From NCBI GenBank assembly GCA_003695265.1, contig RFII01000047.1:1-43371 (forward strand): 43,371 nucleotides of DNA, in the 5' to 3' direction. Numbering within the stretch: position 1 is the stretch's first letter; each line of letters starts with the position of its first letter. The position numbers and the translations under genes are program-made. Positions 9,620-24,053 of this stretch are shown piece by piece. The notes beneath the pieces are model-generated. The model saw only the letters and a program-made list of their open reading frames with translations. It was not told where the DNA came from and did no database searches. The DNA is from Candidatus Woesearchaeota archaeon. Lineage in GTDB: Archaea; Nanobdellota; Nanobdellia; Woesearchaeales; J072.

Positions 9620-9717
9620 AGAAAAAACAGAAAACCACAACTTTTATATATAGGAATAATTTCTTTTATTCTTGAGAGAGAAAGGAAGTGGGAAAAAAGT
9701 GCTTTCTCGTGAATATT

Positions 9718-10098
9718 ATGGCTAAAACCAAACCTTTATTACCAAGTCTTCGTGAGAATAAACGATACCTTGTTTTCAAAGTAATTTCAAAAGGAAAACT
9801 GACTGACTTTTCAAAAATAGCCAAGGCAATAGAATTAGCAGCAAACAAACTCCTAGGATTCTTAGGCGTTGCAAAAGCCGGAATAGTGCCCCTAAGGGAT
9901 AAATGGAATCAGAGAACCCAGACAGGAATAATCAGAGTTAACACAAAATACGTTGATCACCTGAAATCAAGCTTAAGCCTCATCAATAAAATTGGTAGGA
10001 AGAGCGTTGTTATTAGGAGTTTGGGCGTTTCAGGCATACTGAAGAAAACCGAGCGCTTCGGTGCAGAAAGATCTTATAAAGTGGTGTATAAGAAATGA
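9718..10098 (+). CDS. rnp2: RNase P protein component 2 (Pop5 homologue)
   Basis: LPSLRENKRYLVFKVIS N-terminus is typical of archaeal Pop5. It holds the first position of the conserved exosome superoperon. Confidence 0.7.
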   Translation: MAKTKPLLPSLRENKRYLVFKVISKGKLTDFSKIAKAIELAANKLLGFLGVAKAGIVPLRDKWNQRTQTGIIRVNTKYVDHLKSSLSLINKIGRKSVVIRSLGVSGILKKTERFGAERSYKVVYKK

Positions 10099-10168
10099 AA
10101 TTACAAAACTTTCACGAAATGTTTATTTTTGTAATAAATGCAACAACTGTAAAAGGAGGAGAACCAAA

Positions 10169-10897
10169 ATGCAACAACCATTACCTCACCAATTAATGGG
10201 ATATGACAGAGCAATAACAATGTTCAGCCCTGATGGAAGGCTGCTGCAGGTAGAATACGCTAAGAAAACTGTTAAGCAGGGCTCAACAGCTATTGGGGTT
10301 GTGTGCAAGGATGGCGTTTTGCTCGTGACTGACAAGAGAATAATAGACAAACTGGTCGTGCCTGAAGCTGTTGAGAAAATTTCCCAAATAGATGATCACA
10401 TAGCTGCAACCGCATCCGGCATAATATCTGATGCACGCGTCCTCATTGAAAGAGCGCAGCTTTACGCGCAGCAACACCGCGTAACATATGACTCACCTAT
10501 TGATGTTCTGAGCGTTGTGAAAGATATTTGCTCATTAAAGCAGATATGCACTCAGTCAGGCGGTTTGAGGCCCTTTGGGGTTTCGCTATTAATAGCAGGT
10601 ATTGACAATGGAAAACCAAAGCTTTTCCAAACAGACCCTACAGGAATATACTTTATGTATAAAGCTGTTGTTATTGGGGAATTCAGCAGTGAGATAGAGG
10701 AAGTCCTCCATAAAAAGTACAAGCCAGACATTACTATTGATGAAGCCTTAAAGCTTCTTGTAAAAACTTTGGCAGACGTTTTGGAGGACAACTTTTCTGA
10801 GGACAGGATAGACGCTGTTTACATAAAAACTGAGGATAAAAAATTCACGCCTGTGCCCCAATCATCAATAATGAGAATAATCAGCAAGAAAAAATAA
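10169..10897 (+). CDS. psmA: Proteasome subunit alpha
   Basis: GYDRAITMFSPDGRLLQVEYA signature. AGGAGG lies 8 nt before the ATG at 10169. Confidence 0.95.
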   Translation: MQQPLPHQLMGYDRAITMFSPDGRLLQVEYAKKTVKQGSTAIGVVCKDGVLLVTDKRIIDKLVVPEAVEKISQIDDHIAATASGIISDARVLIERAQLYAQQHRVTYDSPIDVLSVVKDICSLKQICTQSGGLRPFGVSLLIAGIDNGKPKLFQTDPTGIYFMYKAVVIGEFSSEIEEVLHKKYKPDITIDEALKLLVKTLADVLEDNFSEDRIDAVYIKTEDKKFTPVPQSSIMRIISKKK

Positions 10898-10898
10898 G

Positions 10899-11618
10899 AT
10901 GGACAGGAAAACATTTGACCATGAAAGAATAACTTTTAATCTAGCCAGGTTAAGAAAGGGCGGGAAAACTTTTGAGATAGCAATAGACCCTGACTTGGCA
11001 ATAAGCTACAAGCACGGCGCAGATGTTGATATAAGTGAAATAGTAAAGTCTGAGCACATTTTCTCTGACGTAAAAAAAGGAGAATTAGCAAGTGAAACTG
11101 ACCTGAGAAACATTTTTGGAACTGAAAAACCGTTAGAGGTTGCAGAAATAATAATTAAAGAAGGTGAGATTCAGTTAACAGCAGAGTATCGCAAAAAAGT
11201 ACGTGAAGAAAAACTAAACAAAATAATTTATTTGATTCACCGCAACGCAGTAGACCCAAAAACCAACTTACCACACCCCCCAGATAGAATCCAATCTGCT
11301 ATTAAAGAAGCAAAAGTTAGGATTGATGAGTTCAAAAAAGCAGAGGACCAAGTGCAGGACGTGCTAAAGAACATTCGAGAAATTATTCCGATAAAATTAG
11401 AGGTTAAAAAACTTCAAGTTGTTATTCCAGCAGAATATGCTGCTAAATCATATTCCACCGTTAAGAGATTTGGCAAAATGCTCAAGGAGCAATGGAACAA
11501 TGATGGTTCTTTAACTGCTGTTATTGAGGTTCCTGGAGGAATGGAATCAAACTTTTATGATAAGCTAAACTCTTTAACTCATGGAAACAATGAGGTTAAA
11601 GTGTTAAACACAATGTAG
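10899..11618 (+). CDS. SBDS-family ribosome maturation protein
   Basis: 239 aa. Sits between psmA and rrp4, as in the archaeal superoperon. N-terminal FYSH-like LARLRKGGKTFEIAIDPD. Confidence 0.85.
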   Translation: MDRKTFDHERITFNLARLRKGGKTFEIAIDPDLAISYKHGADVDISEIVKSEHIFSDVKKGELASETDLRNIFGTEKPLEVAEIIIKEGEIQLTAEYRKKVREEKLNKIIYLIHRNAVDPKTNLPHPPDRIQSAIKEAKVRIDEFKKAEDQVQDVLKNIREIIPIKLEVKKLQVVIPAEYAAKSYSTVKRFGKMLKEQWNNDGSLTAVIEVPGGMESNFYDKLNSLTHGNNEVKVLNTM

Positions 11619-11631
11619 AGGATTGATAAAA

Positions 11632-12318
11632 ATGAGTGAATTAATAGCAAAGGAGAGAGATGTTGTTATTCCAGGAGAGATAATTGCAAAAGGAATGGAT
11701 TATTTGCCTGGGATTAACGCATCAAGACAAGGAGAAAATATAATTGCGAACAGGACAGGACTAGTTGAGATAAATGGTAGGGTAATAAAAATAATACCTT
11801 TATCAGGAAGGTACATGCCAAAAGAGAAGGATAGGGTTATAGGAAAAATCATAGATATAAACCTGGGCGGATGGAGGCTTGACATAAACTCAGCTTACAC
11901 TGCAATGCTCTCTATGAAAGAGGCAACTTCAGACTTTATCACGAAAGGAGCTGATTTAACCCAGTACTTTGACATTGGTGATTATGTTATAACTAGAATA
12001 ACCCAAGTCACAAGCCAAAAACTGGTTGATGTTTCGATGAAAGGCCCTGGATTAGGCAAGCTCAAGAATGGTAGGATCCTATCAATAAAGCCTAACAAGG
12101 TGCCGAGAGTTATTGGCAAGCAAGGATCAATGGTCAACCTTATTAAAGAAAAAACAAATTGTAAGATTGTAGTTGGCCAGAATGGGCTTGTCTGGATACA
12201 GGGGAGCCCAAAAGATGAATTAAAAGCTGTTGAGACTATAAGAATGATTGAGGAAAAAGCTCACATACCTGGTTTAACAGACAAAATCAAGGAATTTCTT
12301 GAGACAAACAAGCAATAA
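11632..12318 (+). CDS. rrp4: Exosome RNA-binding subunit Rrp4 (S1 + KH)
   Basis: S1-like GDRVIGKIIDINLGGWRLDI and KH-like KVPRVIGKQGSMVNLIKEKT. The ATG at 11632 follows GAGGA. Confidence 0.9.
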   Translation: MSELIAKERDVVIPGEIIAKGMDYLPGINASRQGENIIANRTGLVEINGRVIKIIPLSGRYMPKEKDRVIGKIIDINLGGWRLDINSAYTAMLSMKEATSDFITKGADLTQYFDIGDYVITRITQVTSQKLVDVSMKGPGLGKLKNGRILSIKPNKVPRVIGKQGSMVNLIKEKTNCKIVVGQNGLVWIQGSPKDELKAVETIRMIEEKAHIPGLTDKIKEFLETNKQ

Positions 12319-12330
12319 TAGGTGATTATT

Positions 12331-13044
12331 ATGGTTTACAAAGAAAGACTAAACAAGAGAGGTTTTGATGAGCCTCGGAAAATAGAAGCAAAAACTGGAG
12401 TAATAAAGAAAGCTGATGGGTCAGCTTACTTCAGAATAGGTAACACTGCTGCTTACGCAGCTGTTTATGGCCCGAGAGATCTCTACCCTAAATTCTTGCA
12501 GAACCCAAAAGAAGGTATTTTGAGATGCAAATACAATATGATGCCATTCTCAGGAAGAGGGGAAAGAGTAAGACCAGGGCCTTCAAGGAGGTCAAGGGAA
12601 ATATCTTTAGTTACTGAGAGGGCTCTTCTGCCCGTCCTGAACCTTGAGGATTTCCCAAACGCTGTCGTAGACGTTTTTATCGAGCTCCCTCAAACAGAGG
12701 CTGGCTCGAGATGTGCTGGCATTTGCGCTGCTTCAATGGCTTTGGCTGATGCTGGCATTCCAATGAAAGGAATGGTAAGTGCTGTCTCTGTGGGAAGGGT
12801 TGATGATAAGATTTTGGTTGATCTTGACTATACTGAGGAGTCCTACGAGGGCGGCCCGGTTGCTGACATTCCAATAGCAATTGTTCATGAAACAGGACAG
12901 TTCAGCCTCTTGCAAATGGACGGCTGCATAACAAAGGACATGCTCAGTAAAGCGTTTGAGCTCGGAAAAAAAGTGTGCGCAAAAATATATGAGGCACAAA
13001 AGCAGGCAATAAAAGACAGGTATAAGATTGGTGATGACAAATGA
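12331..13044 (+). CDS. rrp41: Exosome exonuclease subunit Rrp41 (RNase PH domain)
   Basis: RNase PH fold motifs DGSAYFRIGNTAAYAAVYGP and SRRSREISL. AGGTGA lies 5 nt before the ATG at 12331. Confidence 0.9.
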   Translation: MVYKERLNKRGFDEPRKIEAKTGVIKKADGSAYFRIGNTAAYAAVYGPRDLYPKFLQNPKEGILRCKYNMMPFSGRGERVRPGPSRRSREISLVTERALLPVLNLEDFPNAVVDVFIELPQTEAGSRCAGICAASMALADAGIPMKGMVSAVSVGRVDDKILVDLDYTEESYEGGPVADIPIAIVHETGQFSLLQMDGCITKDMLSKAFELGKKVCAKIYEAQKQAIKDRYKIGDDK

Positions 13045-13820
13045 ACAAAGAATTAAGAGAAAGCATACTCAAATCACTTAAAGAGGGAATAAGGTTTGAT
13101 GGTCGAAAACTTGATGAGTTTAGGAAGATTGAAGTGGAAACAGGCAGCATAAACACGGCAGAAGGCTCTGCCCATGTGAAAATAGGGAATACTGAAGTTC
13201 TTGCAGGAATAAAACTTCAGATTGAAGAACCCTACCCAGACACACCTGATGAAGGAATGATGATGGTTGGAATGGAATTGTTGCCTTTAGCTAATCCAGA
13301 GTTTGAGAGCGGCCCACCGACAGAAGAAGCTATTGAGATATCAAGAGTTATTGATAGGGGGATAAGAGAATCAAAGTGTATTGACATGAAGAAACTGAAT
13401 GTTAAGAAGGGAGAAAAAAGCTGGGCGGTCATGGTTGATATCGCGCCAATAAACGATGCTGGCAACCTTTTAGATGCGGGGTCATTAGCCGCAATACTAG
13501 CATTAAAAAACACAACAATGCCTGAATTTGACGGTGAGAAAATTGACTATAAAAAGAAGACGTCAAAAAAACTTCCATTAGGTAAGCTTCCTGTTTCAGT
13601 GACAATAGCCAAAATCGGTGATTATTTCATAGTTGATCCTAGCAGTGAGGAGGAGGAAGCATTAGACGCTAAGCTCACAGTTGCTTCTCTTGATGATGGC
13701 ACTTTATGTGCGATGCAAAAAGCTGGCTATAAGCCTTTAAGCGAGGATGACATTATGAAAATGATTGATATGTCGCTTAAAGCTGCCAAGAAACTGAGGG
13801 TGTACCATGAAAAAGCATGA
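13041..13820 (+). CDS. rrp42: Exosome subunit Rrp42 (RNase PH domain)
   Basis: GIRFDGRKLDEFRKIEVETG...AEGSAHVKIGNTEVLAGIK. ATGA overlap with rrp41. Confidence 0.9.
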   Translation: MNKELRESILKSLKEGIRFDGRKLDEFRKIEVETGSINTAEGSAHVKIGNTEVLAGIKLQIEEPYPDTPDEGMMMVGMELLPLANPEFESGPPTEEAIEISRVIDRGIRESKCIDMKKLNVKKGEKSWAVMVDIAPINDAGNLLDAGSLAAILALKNTTMPEFDGEKIDYKKKTSKKLPLGKLPVSVTIAKIGDYFIVDPSSEEEEALDAKLTVASLDDGTLCAMQKAGYKPLSEDDIMKMIDMSLKAAKKLRVYHEKA

Positions 13821-16255: not shown

Positions 16256-16277
16256 TGTGCTGGAATTTTATTCTCTT

Positions 16278-17972
16278 ATGAACTTTAAAAGAGAAATCAT
16301 CAAGTTATTGAAAGAGCATATTGCCAAATACACGGATTTTGCTGAAAGCAGCATTGAGGTGCCTCCCGACACCAAGATGGGGGATTATGCCTTCCCATGC
16401 TTTTCTCTTGCCAAAAATCTTAATAAAAACCCTGCGCAAATAGCTGCTGATCTTAAGAAAAAAATAAAAGTAAAGTCGCCATTATTAGCAGTTGAGGCAA
16501 AAGGGCCTTACCTTAATTTCTTTCTGGACAAAAAAAGCGTTATTGAAGCAGCACTAAAGAAAATCTGTAACGAAAAGGAAAAGTATGGCGCTGGAGCAAA
16601 ACAAAAGGAGAAAGTCATGGTCGAGTTCTCGCAGCCAAACACTCATAAAGAATTCCACATAGGCCATCTGAGAAACTGTTGTTTAGGCGACGCATTGTCT
16701 AAAGTGCTCTCATTCTACGGCTTCCCTGTCATTACCGCAAATTACATTAATGACACTGGAGCTCACGTTGCGAAATGCCTATGGATATACAAAAAATTTT
16801 ATGATGGAAAAGAGCCCGAGAATGATAAAGGCAGATGGTTAGGCCAGATTTACGCAGAAGCAACAAAAAAGGTTGAGGAGAACCCTCAGTTTAAGGCTGA
16901 AGTGGACGAAGTTTTGCAAAAGCTGGAGTCAAAAGACCCTGAAATAATGAGGTTGTGGGAAAAAACAAAAAAATGGAGCATGGAAGGCTTCATGAGGATT
17001 TACAAAATATTGAATGTTAAGTTTGACACGTGGTTTTTTGACAACGAATTAATAGAACCCGCAAAAAGAATTGTTGAGGACATGAAAAAGAAAGGTATTG
17101 TTGTTGAGAGCGAGGGCGCGTTAATAGCTGACCTGGAGAGATTTAATCTTCACAAAGTAATAATATTGAAGAGTGACGGCACAACGCCTTACATAACAAA
17201 GGACTTTGAGCTTGCAAACCAGAAGTTTACTAAGTACAAGATTGACAGGTCTATTTATGTTGTTGGCGTTGATCAAAGACTTCATTTCCAGCAACTCTTC
17301 AAAATACTTGAGCTGTATGGTTTTAAGCAGGCGAAGAAGTGTTATCATCTTTCATATGAGCTCGTGCATTTAAAGGAAGGGAAGATGTCATCTCGCCATG
17401 GCAATGCTGTTCTTTTCCTTGACTTATATGAACTTGTGAGGAGGAAGGCATTGGAAGAAGTTGAAAAAAGGCATAAGGACTGGTCGAAGGATGAGAAAAA
17501 AAAGGCAGTAGAACAAATCACTTTGGCTGCGCTTAAGTTCGGAATGGTTTCAATTGAGAACAACAAGGTGATAATATTTGATCCTGATAAGGCGCTTGAC
17601 TTCGAGGGTGAGTCAGGCCCTTACATACAATACACTCACGCGCGGATATGCAGCATAATAAAAAAAGCGTCTAATAAGCAGAAGAAAGTGGATTATTCCC
17701 TTTTAAGAGAGGAATCAGAATACGTTATTGTTAAGAAACTCATGCAGTTCCCAAACATAGTGGAGGAGTCTGCGCAGCATTACAAAGTTCATAACATTGC
17801 CCGCTACTTAATCGAGCTCTGCCAGCTTTTCAACAACTATTACCATTCTGTTAAGGTTATACAAGACGATAAGGAGGTTGAGGCGAGCAGGCTCGCATTA
17901 ATAAATGCTGTTCGGCACGTAATAAGAAACGGCTTAAACCTATTAGGAATTCCTTCTCCGGAAAGAATGTGA
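16278..17972 (+). CDS. argS: Arginyl-tRNA synthetase, copy 1
   Basis: GPYLNFF (Add-1 domain), class-I HIGHLRN, GKMSSRHG (KMSKS equivalent), SGPYIQYTHAR, DALR-type C-terminus ending in M. The ATG at 16278 has a TATA-like box about 28 nt upstream. Confidence 0.93.
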   Translation: MNFKREIIKLLKEHIAKYTDFAESSIEVPPDTKMGDYAFPCFSLAKNLNKNPAQIAADLKKKIKVKSPLLAVEAKGPYLNFFLDKKSVIEAALKKICNEKEKYGAGAKQKEKVMVEFSQPNTHKEFHIGHLRNCCLGDALSKVLSFYGFPVITANYINDTGAHVAKCLWIYKKFYDGKEPENDKGRWLGQIYAEATKKVEENPQFKAEVDEVLQKLESKDPEIMRLWEKTKKWSMEGFMRIYKILNVKFDTWFFDNELIEPAKRIVEDMKKKGIVVESEGALIADLERFNLHKVIILKSDGTTPYITKDFELANQKFTKYKIDRSIYVVGVDQRLHFQQLFKILELYGFKQAKKCYHLSYELVHLKEGKMSSRHGNAVLFLDLYELVRRKALEEVEKRHKDWSKDEKKKAVEQITLAALKFGMVSIENNKVIIFDPDKALDFEGESGPYIQYTHARICSIIKKASNKQKKVDYSLLREESEYVIVKKLMQFPNIVEESAQHYKVHNIARYLIELCQLFNNYYHSVKVIQDDKEVEASRLALINAVRHVIRNGLNLLGIPSPERM

Positions 17973-18075: not shown

Positions 18076-18858
18076 ATGAAAATATTAAAGATTCCTTTCT
18101 CAGCCGGCGGCCTCGGAAAAACAAAGGGGTGTGAACTTGCCCCTGATGCAATTGAGAATGAGGTGAAAAACTTTTTTCTGACAGAATCAGGAGTCTTGCC
18201 AGTTTTTGATTCATCTCAGCTTAAAATAAACCAGTCGAACATTGAAGCAACCAATAAATCTGTGGGAGAAGCGATTAAGAATGTTAATGAGCCCGCAATA
18301 ATACTTGGAGGAGACCACTCAATAACTTACGCCGCTTTTAGCGCGTTTGCAAAAAAATACTCTTCTCCAGGCATCGTTGTTTTTGACGCTCATTTTGACT
18401 GCCAGAGCGACATGGAGCCGCCGACGCATGAGGATTATTTGAGAATGCTAATAAGAAAAGGTGTTGTTTCGCCGCAGAATGTTGTTGTTATAGGCACGAG
18501 AAACTGGCATAAAGATGAGCTTGAGTTTGTGAAGGAGCAGAGAATAAAACATTTCAGCATGAAAGAGATCTCATTTGAAGGCATTAGAGAAGTGTGCGAT
18601 GCTGCAATGTCCATAGCTAAGAATTGGGATGCAATTTATCTTTCAGTTGATATTGACGTTCTGGACCCTTCTTTTGCGCCTGGCACTGGCTATCAAGAGC
18701 CAGGAGGCATGAGTTCGAGAGAATTAATTTATTTTCTTCAACGCTTCAAAAACCTGCGCAAATTAGAAATGATTGATATTGTGGAGGTTAATCCCAAAAA
18801 AGATGTTAATAATATTACAGTAAAGACCGCTGCCAAGATTGTCGTCGAGATGTCCTAG
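18076..18858 (+). CDS. Ureohydrolase (arginase/agmatinase/formiminoglutamase family)
   Basis: All Mn-ligand motifs are present: GGDHSIT, VFDAHFD, SVDIDVLDPSFAPGTG, DIVEVNP. At 260 aa it is short for the family. Confidence 0.85.
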   Translation: MKILKIPFSAGGLGKTKGCELAPDAIENEVKNFFLTESGVLPVFDSSQLKINQSNIEATNKSVGEAIKNVNEPAIILGGDHSITYAAFSAFAKKYSSPGIVVFDAHFDCQSDMEPPTHEDYLRMLIRKGVVSPQNVVVIGTRNWHKDELEFVKEQRIKHFSMKEISFEGIREVCDAAMSIAKNWDAIYLSVDIDVLDPSFAPGTGYQEPGGMSSRELIYFLQRFKNLRKLEMIDIVEVNPKKDVNNITVKTAAKIVVEMS

Positions 18859-18904
18859 CCTAAAACAAAAAATTTATATATTCACCATAATTCTCTCGCC
18901 TTTA

Positions 18905-19096
18905 ATGGGACGGATAAAGACTAAATTGATAAAGCGAATAACATTAGAGCTCTTTGAGGAGCACGGCGACAAGTTTAGTGAGGAATATGAAAAGAACAAG
19001 CAGAAATTAACAGAGTTCGTTGATCTGCCCTCAAAGAAGATGAGAAACATCATTGCAGGTTATTTAACCAGATTAGTAAAAAACAATAAAACCTAG
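18905..19096 (+). CDS. rps17e: 30S ribosomal protein S17e
   Basis: MGRIKTKLIKRITLELFEEH is the S17e N-terminus. The ATG at 18905 lies inside the longer track ORF. Confidence 0.9.
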   Translation: MGRIKTKLIKRITLELFEEHGDKFSEEYEKNKQKLTEFVDLPSKKMRNIIAGYLTRLVKNNKT

Positions 19097-19107
19097 GGGT
19101 GGTATTT

Positions 19108-19398
19108 ATGGCAGAGGAAACATCTGACAACTGCGTCTTTATCGGCGGAAAGCCTTTTATGAACTACGTTACTGGAGTTGTGATGCAGTTCACAACAAAA
19201 AAGGCAACTGAAGTCCTGCTTAAAGCACGAGGAAAATTCATAAGCAGGGCAGTAGACGTTGCAGAAGTAGCGACAAAAAGGTTTATGAAAGGCCAAGCTG
19301 AGGTCAAGGACATCAGAATTGACTCAGAGGAATTTGAGAACAAAGAAGGAAAACAGGTAAGAGTCTCAACCATTGAAATCCTCATCGGCAAGAAATAA
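19108..19398 (+). CDS. albA: DNA/RNA-binding protein Alba
   Basis: NCVFIGGKPFMNYVTGVVMQF...ARGKFISRAVDVAE...VSTIEI matches Alba. GGGGTGG lies before the ATG at 19108. Confidence 0.9.
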   Translation: MAEETSDNCVFIGGKPFMNYVTGVVMQFTTKKATEVLLKARGKFISRAVDVAEVATKRFMKGQAEVKDIRIDSEEFENKEGKQVRVSTIEILIGKK

Positions 19399-19500: not shown

Positions 19501-19585
19501 GGGCCTGTGGTGTAATGGATGCTTCTGCCATAAAGCACAACCGGCTTCGGACCGGTTAATCGGGGTTCGAATCCTCGCAGGCCCA
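19501..19585 (+). tRNA. tRNA-Arg (anticodon UCG) with a 21-nt D-loop (probable ~11-nt insertion/intron)
   Basis: Manual fold: GGGCCTG TG GTGT [AATGGATGCTTCTGCCATAAA] GCAC A ACCGG CTTCGGA CCGGT TAAT CGGGG TTCGAAT CCTCG CAGGCCC A. Anticodon at 19547-19549. No encoded CCA. Confidence 0.8.
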
Positions 19586-19880: not shown

Positions 19881-20123
19881 TTACTTAATTTTCCTTTCCA
19901 AAAGAACCAGCTGCATTACTTTCATTAGTTTTATTTCTTCTTTTAATTCGTTAAGCTCGTTTTTTAAGGTTAGAATCAGCTCGTAATTGTGGTTTGTGTT
20001 GTTAACGTTTTCGTTAATAATCTTCTCAATGTTTTCAATGGAAGACATGCGTGCGTCAATGTCTTTGACCCAGCCGTCTATGTTGGATTTAAGTTCTTTT
20101 ACCTCTTTTTCCACCAGCGCCAT
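19881..20123 (-). CDS. Small coiled-coil protein, 80 aa
   Basis: ORF track. Heptad-rich sequence (VKELKSNIDGWVKDIDARMSSIENIEKIINE...). No recognisable family. Confidence 0.4.
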   Translation of the reverse strand: MALVEKEVKELKSNIDGWVKDIDARMSSIENIEKIINENVNNTNHNYELILTLKNELNELKEEIKLMKVMQLVLLERKIK

Positions 20124-20233
20124 CTTAAATTAACCTATATGTATCTTAATATACATTATGATATACTAACTTATATTTATATGTTTGGATTTTTTTAAGG
20201 TTCCAAAGAGGATATGGTGCTTTGTGAAACAAT

Positions 20234-20241
20234 TTTAAATA
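20234..20241 (+). promoter_or_regulatory. TATA box TTTAAATA, ~27 nt upstream of the tgt ATG
   Basis: Read directly. Confidence 0.45.
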
Positions 20242-20264
20242 ATAGGTGTTAATCTTCACTTTTT

Positions 20265-21395
20265 ATGTTCAAAATAACAGAAGAAGAGGGTCAAGCAAGA
20301 ACAGGCATATTAAAAACATCCCACGGCAAAGTCGAAACGCCGAGCTTTAAGGCAGTCGCTACAAAAGGTGCTGTAAAATTTGTAACGACAGACGAATTGA
20401 AAGAAACAGGAGCGCAGGCCATTATTTCAAACGCGTTTATTCTTTACCTGCGGCCCGGCCTAAACATAATTGAGGAGAGCGGAGGATTGCACAAGTTCAT
20501 GGGTTGGGACAGGACAATATTTACTGATTGCGGCGGCTTCCAGGTTTTCTCGCTCGAGGGCGACTTCCACATTAGGACTATTGATGAGGGCATCGCCTTT
20601 AAGAGTCCTTTTGACGGCTCAAAGCACTTGTTAACGCCCAAAAAAACAATAGAAATCCAGTTGCGGCTAGGCTCAGACGTTGCAATGGCTCTTGACCATA
20701 TGCCTTTGGCTGGATGCACGAAAGCCCAGGCAATTGAATCATTGAAGCACACGCACAAGTGGATGCAGGAATGCAAGAAAATTCATGACAAGGAGAATAA
20801 TAGCAAGCAATTACTCTTTGGAATTGCGCAAGGCTCAATATTTCCTGACTTGCGTCTGAAATCCATAAGGTTTATAGACAGCCTTGATTTTGATGGCATT
20901 GCTTTTGGAGGACTTGCCATAGGAGAACCCAAGGAGAAAATGTATGAGATGATAAGGATAAGCTCTGCAAACTGCTCAGCAGAAAAGCCGCGCTACGTCA
21001 TGGGAGTCGGCTCGCCAATGGATATTCTAAAATGCGTCGCTTTAGGAGTGGACACTTTTGACTCTGTTTTTCCCACAAGAAATGCTAGGCACGGCCAGCT
21101 CTTCACAAGAAAAGGGCCAATAAACATTGAGAATTCCGCATTTAGGAAAGACTTTTCTCCTGTTGACGAGCATTGCAAATGTTTTAGCTGCAAAAAACAC
21201 ACCAGGGCTTACATACATCACCTTTTTAAGACGTCAGAGCCACTAGGCAAAATACTGGCAAGTTACCACAACCTTTTTTTCATACAGCAAATGCTGAGAG
21301 ACGTGAGAAAAGCAATTAAAGGCAATGAATTCAATTATTTCAAAAACACTTTCATAGAGGATTATAAGGGGGTAAATCATAAAGGAAGAAAATGA
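20265..21395 (+). CDS. tgt: tRNA-guanine transglycosylase, bacterial (queuine/preQ1) type
   Basis: TDCGGFQVFSL, FGIAQGS, DGIAFGGLAIGEP, KPRYVMGVGSP, DTFDSVFPTRNARHG, zinc site CKCFSCKKHTRAYIHHL. By eye it aligns much more closely with bacterial Tgt than with archaeosine TGT. There is no C-terminal PUA extension. Confidence 0.88.
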   Translation: MFKITEEEGQARTGILKTSHGKVETPSFKAVATKGAVKFVTTDELKETGAQAIISNAFILYLRPGLNIIEESGGLHKFMGWDRTIFTDCGGFQVFSLEGDFHIRTIDEGIAFKSPFDGSKHLLTPKKTIEIQLRLGSDVAMALDHMPLAGCTKAQAIESLKHTHKWMQECKKIHDKENNSKQLLFGIAQGSIFPDLRLKSIRFIDSLDFDGIAFGGLAIGEPKEKMYEMIRISSANCSAEKPRYVMGVGSPMDILKCVALGVDTFDSVFPTRNARHGQLFTRKGPINIENSAFRKDFSPVDEHCKCFSCKKHTRAYIHHLFKTSEPLGKILASYHNLFFIQQMLRDVRKAIKGNEFNYFKNTFIEDYKGVNHKGRK

Positions 21396-22393
21396 GGTTG
21401 AAATTGAGTGATTTTGATTATGAGCTTCCAAAAGAATTGATTGCGCAGCACGCCTCAATCCCAAAAGACAGCTCTAAGCTGATGATTGTCAGGAAGGATT
21501 CTGTTGAACATAAAAAATTCAGTGATGTAATCAATTATTTGGAGAAAGGGGACGTTCTCGTCATTAATGAGGCAAAGGTTAGCAGAGCAAAGCTTAGGGG
21601 AAGAAAAGAGAGTGGCGGAAAAGCAGAAGTAATACTGTGCAAAAGGCTTGGCAAGGATTTGTTTAAGTGTAGGATAAAAGGCAGTAGGCTGAGAGAAGGC
21701 ATAATCATAAAGTTTAAGCAGGGGTTAAGCTCGAAAATCGTTAAGAAAAATGATGATGTTTTCACAATAAAGTTTAATAAGCCGATTAGTGAGAACCTGA
21801 AAAGACTTTTTGAGCTTCCGCTGCCCCCTTATGTTAAGGAGCCCTTAAAGGACGAGTCTGAGTACCAAACGGTTTACTCCAAAAAAGAAGGATCATTAGC
21901 TGCTCCTACTGCCGGCCTGCATTTCACAGATGAGCTTCTTAAAAGAATAAAGGAGAAAGGTGTTAAGATAGCAAAGATTTGCCTGCACATAGATTTCGGA
22001 ACGTTTCTGCCGATCAGAGGAAAGATTAAAGATCACAAGATGCATGAGGAATGCTTTGAGATTAGCAAAAGAAATGCAGAAATAATCAATAATAGGAAAG
22101 GCCGCTTAATAGTCGTGGGAACAACGTGCGTCCGCGCTTTAGAATCATCTGCTGATGAGAAAGGAAATATTATTCCGCAGAAGAGCAAAACATCTCTTTT
22201 TATCTATCCTGGTTACAGGTTCAAGACTAGAATTGATGCTATAATAACTAATTTTCACCTGCCAAAATCTACTCTGCTCCTCTTGGTTTCTGCATACTTT
22301 GGCAGAGAAAGAATTCTTGAAGCGTACAAGCTTGCAGTAGAAAAAAAGTATAGGTTTTACAGTTTGGGAGATGCTATGATACTTATTTCCTAA
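21392..22393 (+). CDS. queA: S-adenosylmethionine:tRNA ribosyltransferase-isomerase
   Basis: LSDFDYELPKELIAQHA, GTTCVRALES, ITNFHLPKSTLLLLVSAY are QueA hallmarks. ATGA overlap with tgt. Confidence 0.92.
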   Translation: MRLKLSDFDYELPKELIAQHASIPKDSSKLMIVRKDSVEHKKFSDVINYLEKGDVLVINEAKVSRAKLRGRKESGGKAEVILCKRLGKDLFKCRIKGSRLREGIIIKFKQGLSSKIVKKNDDVFTIKFNKPISENLKRLFELPLPPYVKEPLKDESEYQTVYSKKEGSLAAPTAGLHFTDELLKRIKEKGVKIAKICLHIDFGTFLPIRGKIKDHKMHEECFEISKRNAEIINNRKGRLIVVGTTCVRALESSADEKGNIIPQKSKTSLFIYPGYRFKTRIDAIITNFHLPKSTLLLLVSAYFGRERILEAYKLAVEKKYRFYSLGDAMILIS

Positions 22394-22901
22394 TGCTGAA
22401 CTCACACCCACAATAGTTCTGCCTGTAAAGGCCGTGCTTTTTGCTCAGCTCAACAGAACGCCTAAATCCATCCTTCTTTTTTAAATCAATTTCGAGGAAT
22501 CTTCCAAGCTTTCTGCCAATGGAGAATATTTTTTGAGAATTCTTGTGCGGGCTTATTGTTAGGGTTGTTGTGAAAAGGTCAAAGCCGTGCTCCTCAGCAT
22601 AGTCACGAGCCCTTTTCAGGTTGAATTCAAAGCATTTCTCGCATCTCCTGCCGCCTTCTGGCTCTGCCTCAAGGCCTTTGATGAATTCCCGCCAAGCAGC
22701 GTGATTATAAGAATCTTCAACTAATTCTAAATCATAGATTTTTGCTATTTTTCTGGCTTCATTAAGCCTTTTTTCATACTCTTCTTTTGGGTAAATGTTG
22801 GAGCCAGAGAAAAACAATGTGACTTTATAATCTTTTTTTAATTCTTCTATCGAGTGCGTTGAGCATGGCGCGCAGCAAACATGCAACAATAATTTTTTCA
22901 T
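22383..22901 (-). CDS. queH: Epoxyqueuosine reductase QueH (DUF208)
   Basis: 172 aa. LLLHVCCAPCS N-terminal cluster motif and C-terminal YCGCEFS. Convergent with queA, with an 11-nt 3' overlap. Confidence 0.85.
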   Translation of the reverse strand: MKKLLLHVCCAPCSTHSIEELKKDYKVTLFFSGSNIYPKEEYEKRLNEARKIAKIYDLELVEDSYNHAAWREFIKGLEAEPEGGRRCEKCFEFNLKRARDYAEEHGFDLFTTTLTISPHKNSQKIFSIGRKLGRFLEIDLKKKDGFRRSVELSKKHGLYRQNYCGCEFSIRK

Positions 22902-22920
22902 AGGATTCGAGGATGAAATA

Positions 22921-22933
22921 ATAATATAAATAA
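22921..22933 (-). promoter_or_regulatory. TATA-like TTATTTATATTAT (minus strand), ~27 nt upstream of the queH ATG
   Basis: Read directly. Confidence 0.4.
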
Positions 22934-23014
22934 TTAACCAATGCAGATCGAAATAGCTATATATTGGATATTGGGTTGCGAAAGCAGATATAATCCACTC
23001 ATAAATCGGGGTTT

Positions 23015-23033
23015 CAAAGGGGAGTCCCCTTTG
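23015..23033 (-). terminator. Hairpin CAAAGGGG-agt-CCCCTTTG abutting the stop of the 23039..23674 gene
   Basis: 8-bp perfect stem. Same flanks (TTCAAAGGG...CCCTTTGTAAATT) as the hairpin after albA. Confidence 0.45.
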
Positions 23034-23038
23034 TAAAT

Positions 23039-23674
23039 TTATTTCTTAAGTTTCTGATATTCAATGTAAGAATAAACAAACACGAGCAAAACAACAAGTA
23101 AAACAGGAATAATAACAAACCACACGGCATAACCGCTAAAAAAGACTCCGAGCAGAGCAATGATTGCAGCATACTTGAAGAGCTTGCCGCCGATTTTGTG
23201 GGTTTTCTCCCAGACTTCGTCGCTGCTTAAAGTCCAAGGAGTTCTTATGCCTATGAACCAGTTTCGCTCGAAATGCTGCATTATTGTTCCTAAATAATAA
23301 AAAAGAAGGCCTAGAGCAATTGGTATGAGAATGTTCGGGCTTATTTTTATGCCAGCATTCCACAAGGCAATCTGCAGTTGCATTATAATCATAAAAAAAG
23401 ACAATGCTATGATGAAATTGTAGTAATGCTTCTTGAACTTTTCAACGTTTTTCCTAAGAGGGTCAATTTTTGGTATTAGGATAAAAAGGATTATCATTGC
23501 AGAAAGAATTATTGGCACAAGGAAAGAGCCCCAGAATTTTGGCATGTAACCATTGACTTCTCCTCTTGAGTTCCAGTGTGAGGCAAGCTGCTCAGGCATC
23601 CTGGGATAAAAGAACAGGGCAATCAGGAAAGACAATACTACAAGGGCAAGAAGCAAAAAGCTTATTTTCCTCAT
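23039..23674 (-). CDS. SdpI/DUF1648-family integral membrane protein
   Basis: 211 aa. N-terminal YPRMPEQLASHWNSRGEVNGY (DUF1648-like) and NWFIGIRTPWTLSSDEVWEKTH (SdpI-like). About 6 TM helices. Confidence 0.75.
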   Translation of the reverse strand: MRKISFLLLALVVLSFLIALFFYPRMPEQLASHWNSRGEVNGYMPKFWGSFLVPIILSAMIILFILIPKIDPLRKNVEKFKKHYYNFIIALSFFMIIMQLQIALWNAGIKISPNILIPIALGLLFYYLGTIMQHFERNWFIGIRTPWTLSSDEVWEKTHKIGGKLFKYAAIIALLGVFFSGYAVWFVIIPVLLVVLLVFVYSYIEYQKLKK

Positions 23675-23762
23675 ATTATCTTATTCTTTTTTCCTATTTA
23701 AAAACTTTTTTAACTATTCCTGAAAAAACTTAAATATCTGAATTAAATTTTTCTTCTTTTAT

Positions 23763-23863
23763 GGGGCTGTAGTGTAGCTTGGGCGCATCAATTCATTGGT
23801 GCGGAGCACCTATCATTGGGGGTTCGGGGCCTCCAGACCGGAGTTCAAATCTCCGCAGCCCCA
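23763..23863 (+). tRNA. tRNA with ~28 nt of extra sequence between the D-arm and the anticodon stem; best model tRNA-Pro (CGG)
   Basis: Manual fold: GGGGCTG TA GTGT AGCTTGGGC GCAT C [AATTCATTGGTGCGGAGCACCTATCATT] GGGGG TTCGGGG CCTCC AGAC CGGAG TTCAAAT CTCCG CAGCCCC A. Acceptor and T arms are unambiguous. The anticodon (23825-23827) and insertion boundaries are tentative. Confidence 0.7.
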
Positions 23864-24053
23864 TTTTCTTCTGAGTATAATCTGAAAATATTCCGAAAAT
23901 AAAATCAATATCCCGAAAGATTATCGCTTTAACCAAATATTTTACGATTTTTTCTTAAAAGATTTTATTAGAGCCGAACAATTAACAAAAAAACATTAGG
24001 ACTTAGCTTTGGTTGAGAACAGGATTATTTTTTTAAGTAGAGGTAGCTCTAAA

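Follow-up and report, generated by a model that had tools for sequence, protein, structure and literature searches.

The 43,371-nucleotide contig RFII01000047.1 of a Candidatus Woesearchaeota archaeon (assembly GCA_003695265.1), referred to here as the window, carries tgt, queA and queH, three genes for the late steps of queuosine formation in tRNA. Our preferred reading, to which we assign a probability of about 0.72, is that they constitute a resident late-queuosine module of a Woesearchaeota-type DPANN archaeon, ultimately of bacterial origin, acquired long ago and inherited vertically within the order, which would use salvaged preQ1 (7-aminomethyl-7-deazaguanine) to produce queuosine at position 34 (Q34) of tRNA. 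According to this proposal, the cell would be unable to make 7-deazaguanines and would take up preQ1 released by neighbouring bacteria. Judging from the sequences, Tgt would exchange G34 of the tRNAs with GUN anticodons (Asn, Asp, His and Tyr) for preQ1, QueA would use S-adenosylmethionine (SAM) to add an epoxy-cyclopentanediol, giving epoxyqueuosine (oQ), and QueH would reduce the latter to queuosine, while archaeosine at G15 would not be made.

The tgt-queA-queH cluster and a candidate tRNA substrate

The identity of the three genes and the intactness of their reading frames are clear. The cluster comprises the following features:

20265-21395, plus strand: tgt, bacterial-type tRNA-guanine(34) transglycosylase, 376 amino acids, open reading frame intact
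21392-22393, plus strand: queA, 333 amino acids, open reading frame intact
22383-22901, minus strand: queH, epoxyqueuosine reductase (DUF208 type), 172 amino acids, open reading frame intact
20233-20242, plus strand: TATA-like box TTTTAAATAA, about 27 nucleotides upstream of the tgt ATG, found by sequence inspection
22922-22933, minus strand: TATA-like box TTATTTATATTA, about 26 nucleotides upstream of the queH ATG, found by sequence inspection

The window Tgt scores 437.9 bits against TIGR00430, the equivalog model of the G34 transglycosylase (cut-off 306.75), and 465.5 bits against PF01702. The archaeosine transglycosylase (arcTGT, or TgtA), which acts at G15 with preQ0 (7-cyano-7-deazaguanine), belongs to the same TIM-barrel TGT superfamily and shares its 7-deazaguanine chemistry on tRNA; in contrast to it, the window protein reaches only 162.8 bits on the arcTGT model TIGR00432, below the cut-off of 350, and lacks the C-terminal domains of that enzyme. 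Its closest match in the PDB is the Tgt of Thermotoga maritima (2ASH, E = 6.4e-105), compared with E = 2e-22 for the arcTGT of Pyrococcus horikoshii. The motifs GGLAIGEP, FDSVFPTRNARHG and CKCFSC...HN are all found in the protein. A first-pass annotation of this DNA, made from the letters alone, had assigned Tgt to the bacterial type on the basis of these motifs and of the missing C-terminal domains, and the assignment holds. When aligned with 80 bacterial and 38 archaeal sequences and with 2ASH, Tgt retains Asp102, Asp156, Asp280 and the zinc site formed by Cys318, Cys320, Cys323 and His349 (Zymomonas mobilis numbering, used throughout); Asp102 is catalytic and Asp280 acts as the nucleophile.

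QueA scores 393.6 bits against NF001140 (cut-off 324) and 365.4 bits against TIGR00113 (cut-off 267), and matches T. maritima QueA (1VKY) over its full length, residues 3-331, with E = 5e-88. QueH obtains 205.8 bits against PF02677, whose gathering cut-off is 23.5, and T. maritima QueH (7LC5) matches it over the full length with E = 1.7e-28. The cysteine motifs CCAPC, RCEKC and YCGC, of the kind that binds the metal centres, align with CCAPD, RCERC and YCGC of that enzyme. Residue 13 of QueH is accordingly a cysteine, where the solved T. maritima enzyme has an aspartate.

Inspection of the sequence shows that tgt and queA overlap by ATGA, the ATG of queA sharing letters with the TGA of tgt, an arrangement by which queA is read as translationally coupled to tgt, and that queA and queH converge with an 11-nucleotide overlap at 22383-22393. 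The reading-frame positions and both overlaps had been given exactly in the first-pass annotation. The box TTTTAAATAA probably serves tgt and queA as an archaeal-type promoter, giving a joint transcript that is leaderless or has a short leader, and TTATTTATATTA would be the promoter of queH itself; the spacing of 26-27 nucleotides seen at tgt and queH fits leaderless archaeal transcripts. No preQ1 riboswitch or other Rfam element was found around the cluster, even at E values up to 5.

Bacterial Tgt recognises the element U33-G34-U35. In the genome assembly to which the window belongs (1.06 Mb in 103 contigs, 94.6% complete, 0.57% contaminated; the window is contig C97), the tRNA gene at C54:100-185 reads C32-U33-G34-U35-U36-A37 once a canonical 37/38 intron is removed, and with its G1-C72 pair and G73 it is, on these sequence features, a tRNA-Asn(GUU). 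ARAGORN called the same gene (C54:99-186) tRNA-Tyr(GUA), a call that we rejected in view of the intron position, G1-C72 and G73. A tRNA of the substrate type, with the G34-U35 that had been singled out for checking, is thus present.

The tRNA complement of this assembly is peculiar in its own right. Only about 8-12 tRNA genes can be detected by ARAGORN or with Rfam RF00005, and the full-length matches are nearly all 84-101 nucleotides long and intron-bearing (e.g. C54:100-185, C32:3514-3598 and C84:3370-3456). Ordinary tRNA genes of 72-76 nucleotides are almost entirely missing; they are either unassembled or disrupted in ways that the tools miss.

Ancestry and distribution within the order

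A quick tree of 119 Tgt sequences divides those of the order into two strongly supported clades. Clade I contains 28 sequences including that of the window, whose nearest relatives, from genomes G023, G035 and G050, are 69-73% identical to it, and clade II contains 11 sequences with 36-42% identity to the window Tgt. A more careful tree was computed under LG+C20+F+G4 with bootstraps and with 39 bacterial sequences from many phyla. Here clade I received a support of 100/100, and all the sampled archaeal Tgts of both clades fell on one side of a branch supported at 99/83. The other two proteins behave in a similar manner, in trees with a small bacterial sampling drawn from Tgt loci: 15 of the 16 archaeal QueA sequences group together (98), and the archaeal QueH sequences, 16 in number, all fall to one side of a single branch (99). 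In both of these trees the window belongs to one and the same subclade of five genomes, whose three members that are represented in the Tgt tree (G023, G035 and G050) are the nearest Tgt relatives of the window. The remaining QueA, from G006 (locus L155), groups with Bacillota, which suggests a separate, later transfer in that genome.

In relatives from both Tgt clades the neighbours of tgt include a bacterial-type aspartyl-tRNA synthetase (AspRS) with a GAD domain, Translin, GatA and a tandem family of unknown function, and since these neighbours are common to the two clades, one ancestral locus is suggested. Taken together, the trees and the gene neighbourhoods point to one old bacterial acquisition followed by vertical descent and frequent loss. 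The recent bacterial donor that the first-pass annotation had expected was not borne out: the archaeal clades are deep, and the best bacterial identity to the window Tgt is 42-48% among the matches listed in a peptide-pattern scan. That scan returned bacterial loci alone, which reflects a limit of the method and is not a sign of a close bacterial donor; in a word-based protein search the best matches were archaeal. Chloroflexota (Dehalococcoidia) were considered as the source of Tgt, being sister to the archaeal Tgts at 97 in the SH-aLRT (Shimodaira-Hasegawa-like approximate likelihood-ratio test) in the quick tree. Under the mixture model the implied split drops to 81/54, so this candidate was set aside and is kept as a weak hint.

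The distribution of the genes was assessed in a sample of 61 genomes that represent as many families of the same order. A bacterial-type Tgt exceeds the cut-off in 40 of them, QueA and QueH are found in 16 each, and all three genes in 11. At the level of the phylum, Tgt exceeds the cut-off in 161 of 301 good genomes, or in 159 of 299 when the unpublished genomes G276 and G277 are left out. The tight coupling of tgt and queA and the convergent arrangement of queA and queH are kept in relatives. About half of the clade I genomes have neither QueA nor QueH.

Some features of the related loci are recorded here as observations. In 14 relatives the GAD-containing AspRS of the bacterial type lies within 0-2 kb of tgt, frequently accompanied by GatA (e.g. 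L122-L124, L129, L132, L135, L136 and L139); the Asp and Asn tRNAs to which AspRS and GatA are linked are substrates of queuosine modification. The clade II Tgts (L107-L114, L126 and L145) are about 400-420 amino acids long and mostly occur without QueA or QueH. They keep Glu157-Cys158, have GG-SLG(K/R) in place of GGLxVGE and leucine in place of Met260, and their genes directly adjoin YhhQ in L111 and L114 and Translin in three loci.

Precursor supply and the preQ1 pocket of Tgt

The window contains no queC, queD, queE or queF type genes, as had already been noted, and our search of the genome for QueC, QueD and QueF (QueE was not searched genome-wide) was likewise negative, QueC returning only weak PP-loop matches, one of which is argG. 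Across the order sample QueC exceeds the cut-off in none of the 61 genomes and QueF in one, where it is borderline, so the whole order appears to depend on salvage. The genome has no second TGT-family gene and hence no arcTGT, for which the first-pass annotation had proposed a search. A second, arcTGT-like match is found in 0/61 genomes of the order, by a search that was positive in all four archaeal control genomes; among the 301 good genomes of the phylum there are four such matches, all weak and all in tiny genomes of another order. Since the lineage is without arcTGT, archaeosine at G15 is probably not made. Given that the genome has no QueC, QueD, QueF, arcTGT or known transporter, salvage of preQ1 is the best reading, and the earlier suggestion of precursor salvage, made from the window, gains support from the genome and the order as a whole.

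The pocket in which Tgt binds preQ1 is altered. The window Tgt has methionine at position 158 and isoleucine at position 233, in place of the pair Cys158 and Val233, which is a feature of specificity and not a criterion of fold or family. Cys158, described as "highly conserved in bacterial Tgt" (PMC3660597), is present in 80/80 of the bacterial sequences compared with 1/28 of clade I, in which the other 27 have methionine, valine or leucine at 158; position 233 of the clade is occupied by isoleucine, leucine, phenylalanine or methionine. Viewed over both residues of the motif, clade I replaces the bacterial Glu157-Cys158 with His/Asp followed by Met/Val/Leu. Ile233 also occurs in the Tgt of T. 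maritima, and Gly230, Leu231 and Glu235 are retained in the window protein. In the Z. mobilis enzyme the replacement Cys158Val raises the Km for preQ1 from 0.9 to 16 uM, and with Val233Gly the pocket becomes accessible to queuine (PMC3660597). By its residues, the window pocket is neither of the queuine type nor of the canonical bacterial type.

Several observations weigh against an active preQ1-salvage module in this organism. Biochemical evidence that any archaeal tRNA contains queuosine was not found in the literature that we searched. The pathway is patchy, QueA and QueH each being confined to 16 of the 61 order genomes, and in its full form it is dispensable and often lost. Met158, taken together with the kinetics of Cys158Val, implies that the affinity or specificity for preQ1 may differ. 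Finally, the genome yielded none of the preQ1/queuine transporters that had been suggested for checking: searches for the known preQ0/preQ1 importers YhhQ (PF02592), QueT (PF06177) and QrtT (PF12822) were negative, as were those for HlyIII (PF03006) and UPS (PF07168), with importers of the major facilitator superfamily type not searched, and a tblastn search with the YhhQ of a close relative also gave no match. The genome being 94.6% complete, an importer gene could sit in the missing part.

The changed pocket is the origin of the strongest rival explanation, namely that the module is active, but that the re-modelled pocket of the clade favours a base other than preQ1, for which preQ0, guanine-like bases or another 7-deazaguanine are candidates. 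What ends up in the tRNA would in that case differ from canonical queuosine, at least in the many relatives that have Tgt only. This would account for the loss of Cys158 in 27/28 clade I sequences as compared with 0/80 bacterial ones, in a position where the Z. mobilis replacement lowers the affinity for preQ1 about tenfold (PMC3660597), and for the roughly half of clade I genomes that lack QueA and QueH. Nevertheless, we consider it unlikely: the window keeps QueA and QueH, enzymes that by established enzymology act only on preQ1-tRNA and oQ-tRNA, respectively. Moreover, residue 233 is bulky as in T. maritima Tgt, so that a queuine-type pocket is not formed, Glu235, Gly230 and Leu231 are kept, and there is no QueF to handle preQ0. 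Because the window retains QueA and QueH, preQ1 stays the most likely substrate of its Tgt.

The question of uptake is informed by the relatives. YhhQ/QPTR is a known importer of preQ0 and preQ1; it is found in 23 of the 61 order genomes and in 8 of the 11 that have Tgt, QueA and QueH. Of the three closest relatives whose flanks are sequenced, two (G023 and G035) have yhhQ immediately upstream of queH, so that a yhhQ-queH pair converges on tgt-queA. In the window, the corresponding slot is taken by a tRNA gene and the following gene:

23039-23674, minus strand: gene for an SdpI/DUF1648 membrane protein, in the yhhQ slot of two close relatives

The SdpI-like protein was considered as the missing preQ1 importer and set aside as an improbable specific partner. 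Its homologues occur in 18 of the 61 order genomes, including G004, G005, G040 and G047, which have no Tgt, and never adjoin que genes; in addition, a terminator-like hairpin comes after the gene and queH has a TATA-like box of its own. The hairpin, which is rich in G+C (AAAGGGGA..TCCCCTTT), lies at about 23015-23032, 3' of the SdpI-like gene.

With an unrelated gene and a tRNA gene where relatives have yhhQ, no known transporter in the genome, and QueA and QueH lost in most of the order, the cluster might also be an intact but functionally idle relic which, lacking both precursor synthesis and an importer, has no substrate and is gradually disappearing, as it has in many relatives. We regard this as quite improbable, since the three intact open reading frames keep their catalytic and metal-binding residues and the tgt-queA coupling and queA/queH convergence are conserved in relatives, while about 5% of the genome is missing from the assembly and several unrelated transporter families are able to carry preQ1 (PMC11130926). 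Uptake of preQ1 remains a putative step of the reading that we prefer.

A broader and more speculative possibility, which we hold to be doubtful, is that Woesearchaeales-type DPANN archaea have dropped archaeosine at G15 and rely on one ancient bacterial Tgt with a re-modelled pocket as their sole 7-deazaguanine enzyme, scavenging the base from bacteria. The change of the pocket, with Met/Val/Leu for Cys158 and Ile/Leu for Val233, would in that case mean an altered affinity or specificity, and genomes with Tgt only would make an end product other than queuosine. If this were true, wobble decoding in these archaea would depend on a bacterial metabolite.

Contig integrity and relation to known systems

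The genes that flank the cluster are archaeal, and each of the markers pointed out earlier (Alba, S17e and the exosome operon) was confirmed:

9688-13820: Pop5, proteasome alpha, SBDS, Rrp4, Rrp41 and Rrp42
18839-19096: S17e, upstream of tgt
19099-19398: Alba, 0.9 kb upstream of tgt
19501-19585 and 23763-23863: intron-bearing tRNA genes flanking the cluster

The introns of these two tRNA genes are at non-canonical positions. The G+C content is flat across the window, and the G+C content at third codon positions of tgt, queA and queH (0.42-0.47) lies inside the range of the neighbouring genes. The tetranucleotide profile of 20265-22901 correlates with that of the whole genome at r = 0.939, above 72% of genome windows of equal size. 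Logan contigs cover 19900-22803, with tgt, queA and queH, at a depth of 11.6, and 22839-27000, with the downstream ADI-ArgRS arginine island, at a depth of 11.3; these depths come from one public run, a hot-spring metagenome that is probably the source sample and the only run containing the stretch. As the break between 22803 and 22839 falls inside queH, this gene joins the que cluster to the archaeal arginine island. On the left, the Logan contigs begin at 19900 and none is listed over 16.0-19.3 kb, leaving that junction unbridged. The break in composition or coverage by which a chimeric contig was to be recognised is seen neither in tetranucleotides nor in third codon positions, and the depths of 11.6 and 11.3 agree. 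Among the 120 best database matches to Tgt (50-73% identity), all those with a named source are labelled Nanoarchaeota, Woesearchaeota or archaeon; these labels, along with the genome size of 1.06 Mb, underlie the DPANN/Woesearchaeota affiliation. That assembly or binning fused a bacterial fragment to archaeal DNA is effectively refuted already, for although the left junction lacks an independent bridge and the Logan contigs start at 19900 and break at 22803/22839, the composition shows no break, the depth is equal on both sides of a break that lies inside queH, the closest homologues of tgt, queA and queH alike are archaeal and lie on many independent archaeal contigs, including those of closed or near-closed genomes, and the TATA-like boxes stand at archaeal distances from the start codons.

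The presence of queuosine genes in an archaeon had been put forward by the first-pass annotation as a surprise. The trio is real, but the novelty does not stand: in their account of this pathway, Castelle et al. (2021, Front Microbiol 12:660052, PMC8204110, Fig. 4) report the bacterial queuosine pathway, whole or in part, from 34 archaeal genomes and, among them, co-localised QueA, QueH-like and Tgt in 12 DPANN genomes. The QueA/QueH-like/Tgt set that they describe for DPANN and Methanosarcinales is the same trio, co-localised in the same kind of organism, and likewise represents a bacterial pathway retained in an archaeon. With its three genes together on an archaeal DPANN contig, the window is a further genome of this published group, and the idea itself is already published. 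Relative to that account of the pathway, the present analysis adds the breadth of Tgt (40/61 families and roughly every second good genome of the phylum), the absence of arcTGT and near-absence of QueC and QueF (0/61 and 1/61) across the order, and the single archaeal clades, the yhhQ-queH linkage and the changed position 158.

The same enzyme families make up bacterial preQ1 salvage with QueH, of the T. maritima type (YhhQ/QPTR; Quaiyum et al., 2024, PMC11130926). The proteins of T. maritima are the best solved matches for Tgt, QueA and QueH of the window, and the YhhQ importer family of the bacterial salvage type also stands beside queH in two close relatives. In contrast to that system, the host is an archaeon with intron-bearing tRNAs, without archaeosine and with no known importer found in its genome, and methionine replaces Cys158 in the preQ1 pocket of its Tgt; T. 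maritima furthermore has QueF and de novo synthesis, whereas the window genome has neither.

Reviews still describe queuosine as absent from Archaea (e.g. PMC8879553). If a wobble modification requires a precursor that bacteria alone produce, protein synthesis in these tiny archaea would be bound to the bacteria around them, in line with the life on bacteria that has been proposed for some Woesearchaeota and Pacearchaeota. The counts given here (Tgt in about half of the phylum, arcTGT-like matches in 4/301 genomes, the scarcity of QueC and QueF, the yhhQ-queH pair and the change of the pocket) could guide a test at the bench.

Other genes of the window deserve a brief mention. MetK, at 597-1760 on the plus strand, is a SAM synthetase of the bacterial/eukaryotic type (PF00438/PF02772/PF02773) and not of the archaeal MAT type; its product, SAM, serves QueA as co-substrate. 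The que cluster is surrounded by genes for arginase and an arginine-deiminase-like protein together with argG and argH, and the window holds two full-length arginyl-tRNA synthetase genes, at 16257-17972 and 25393-27114.

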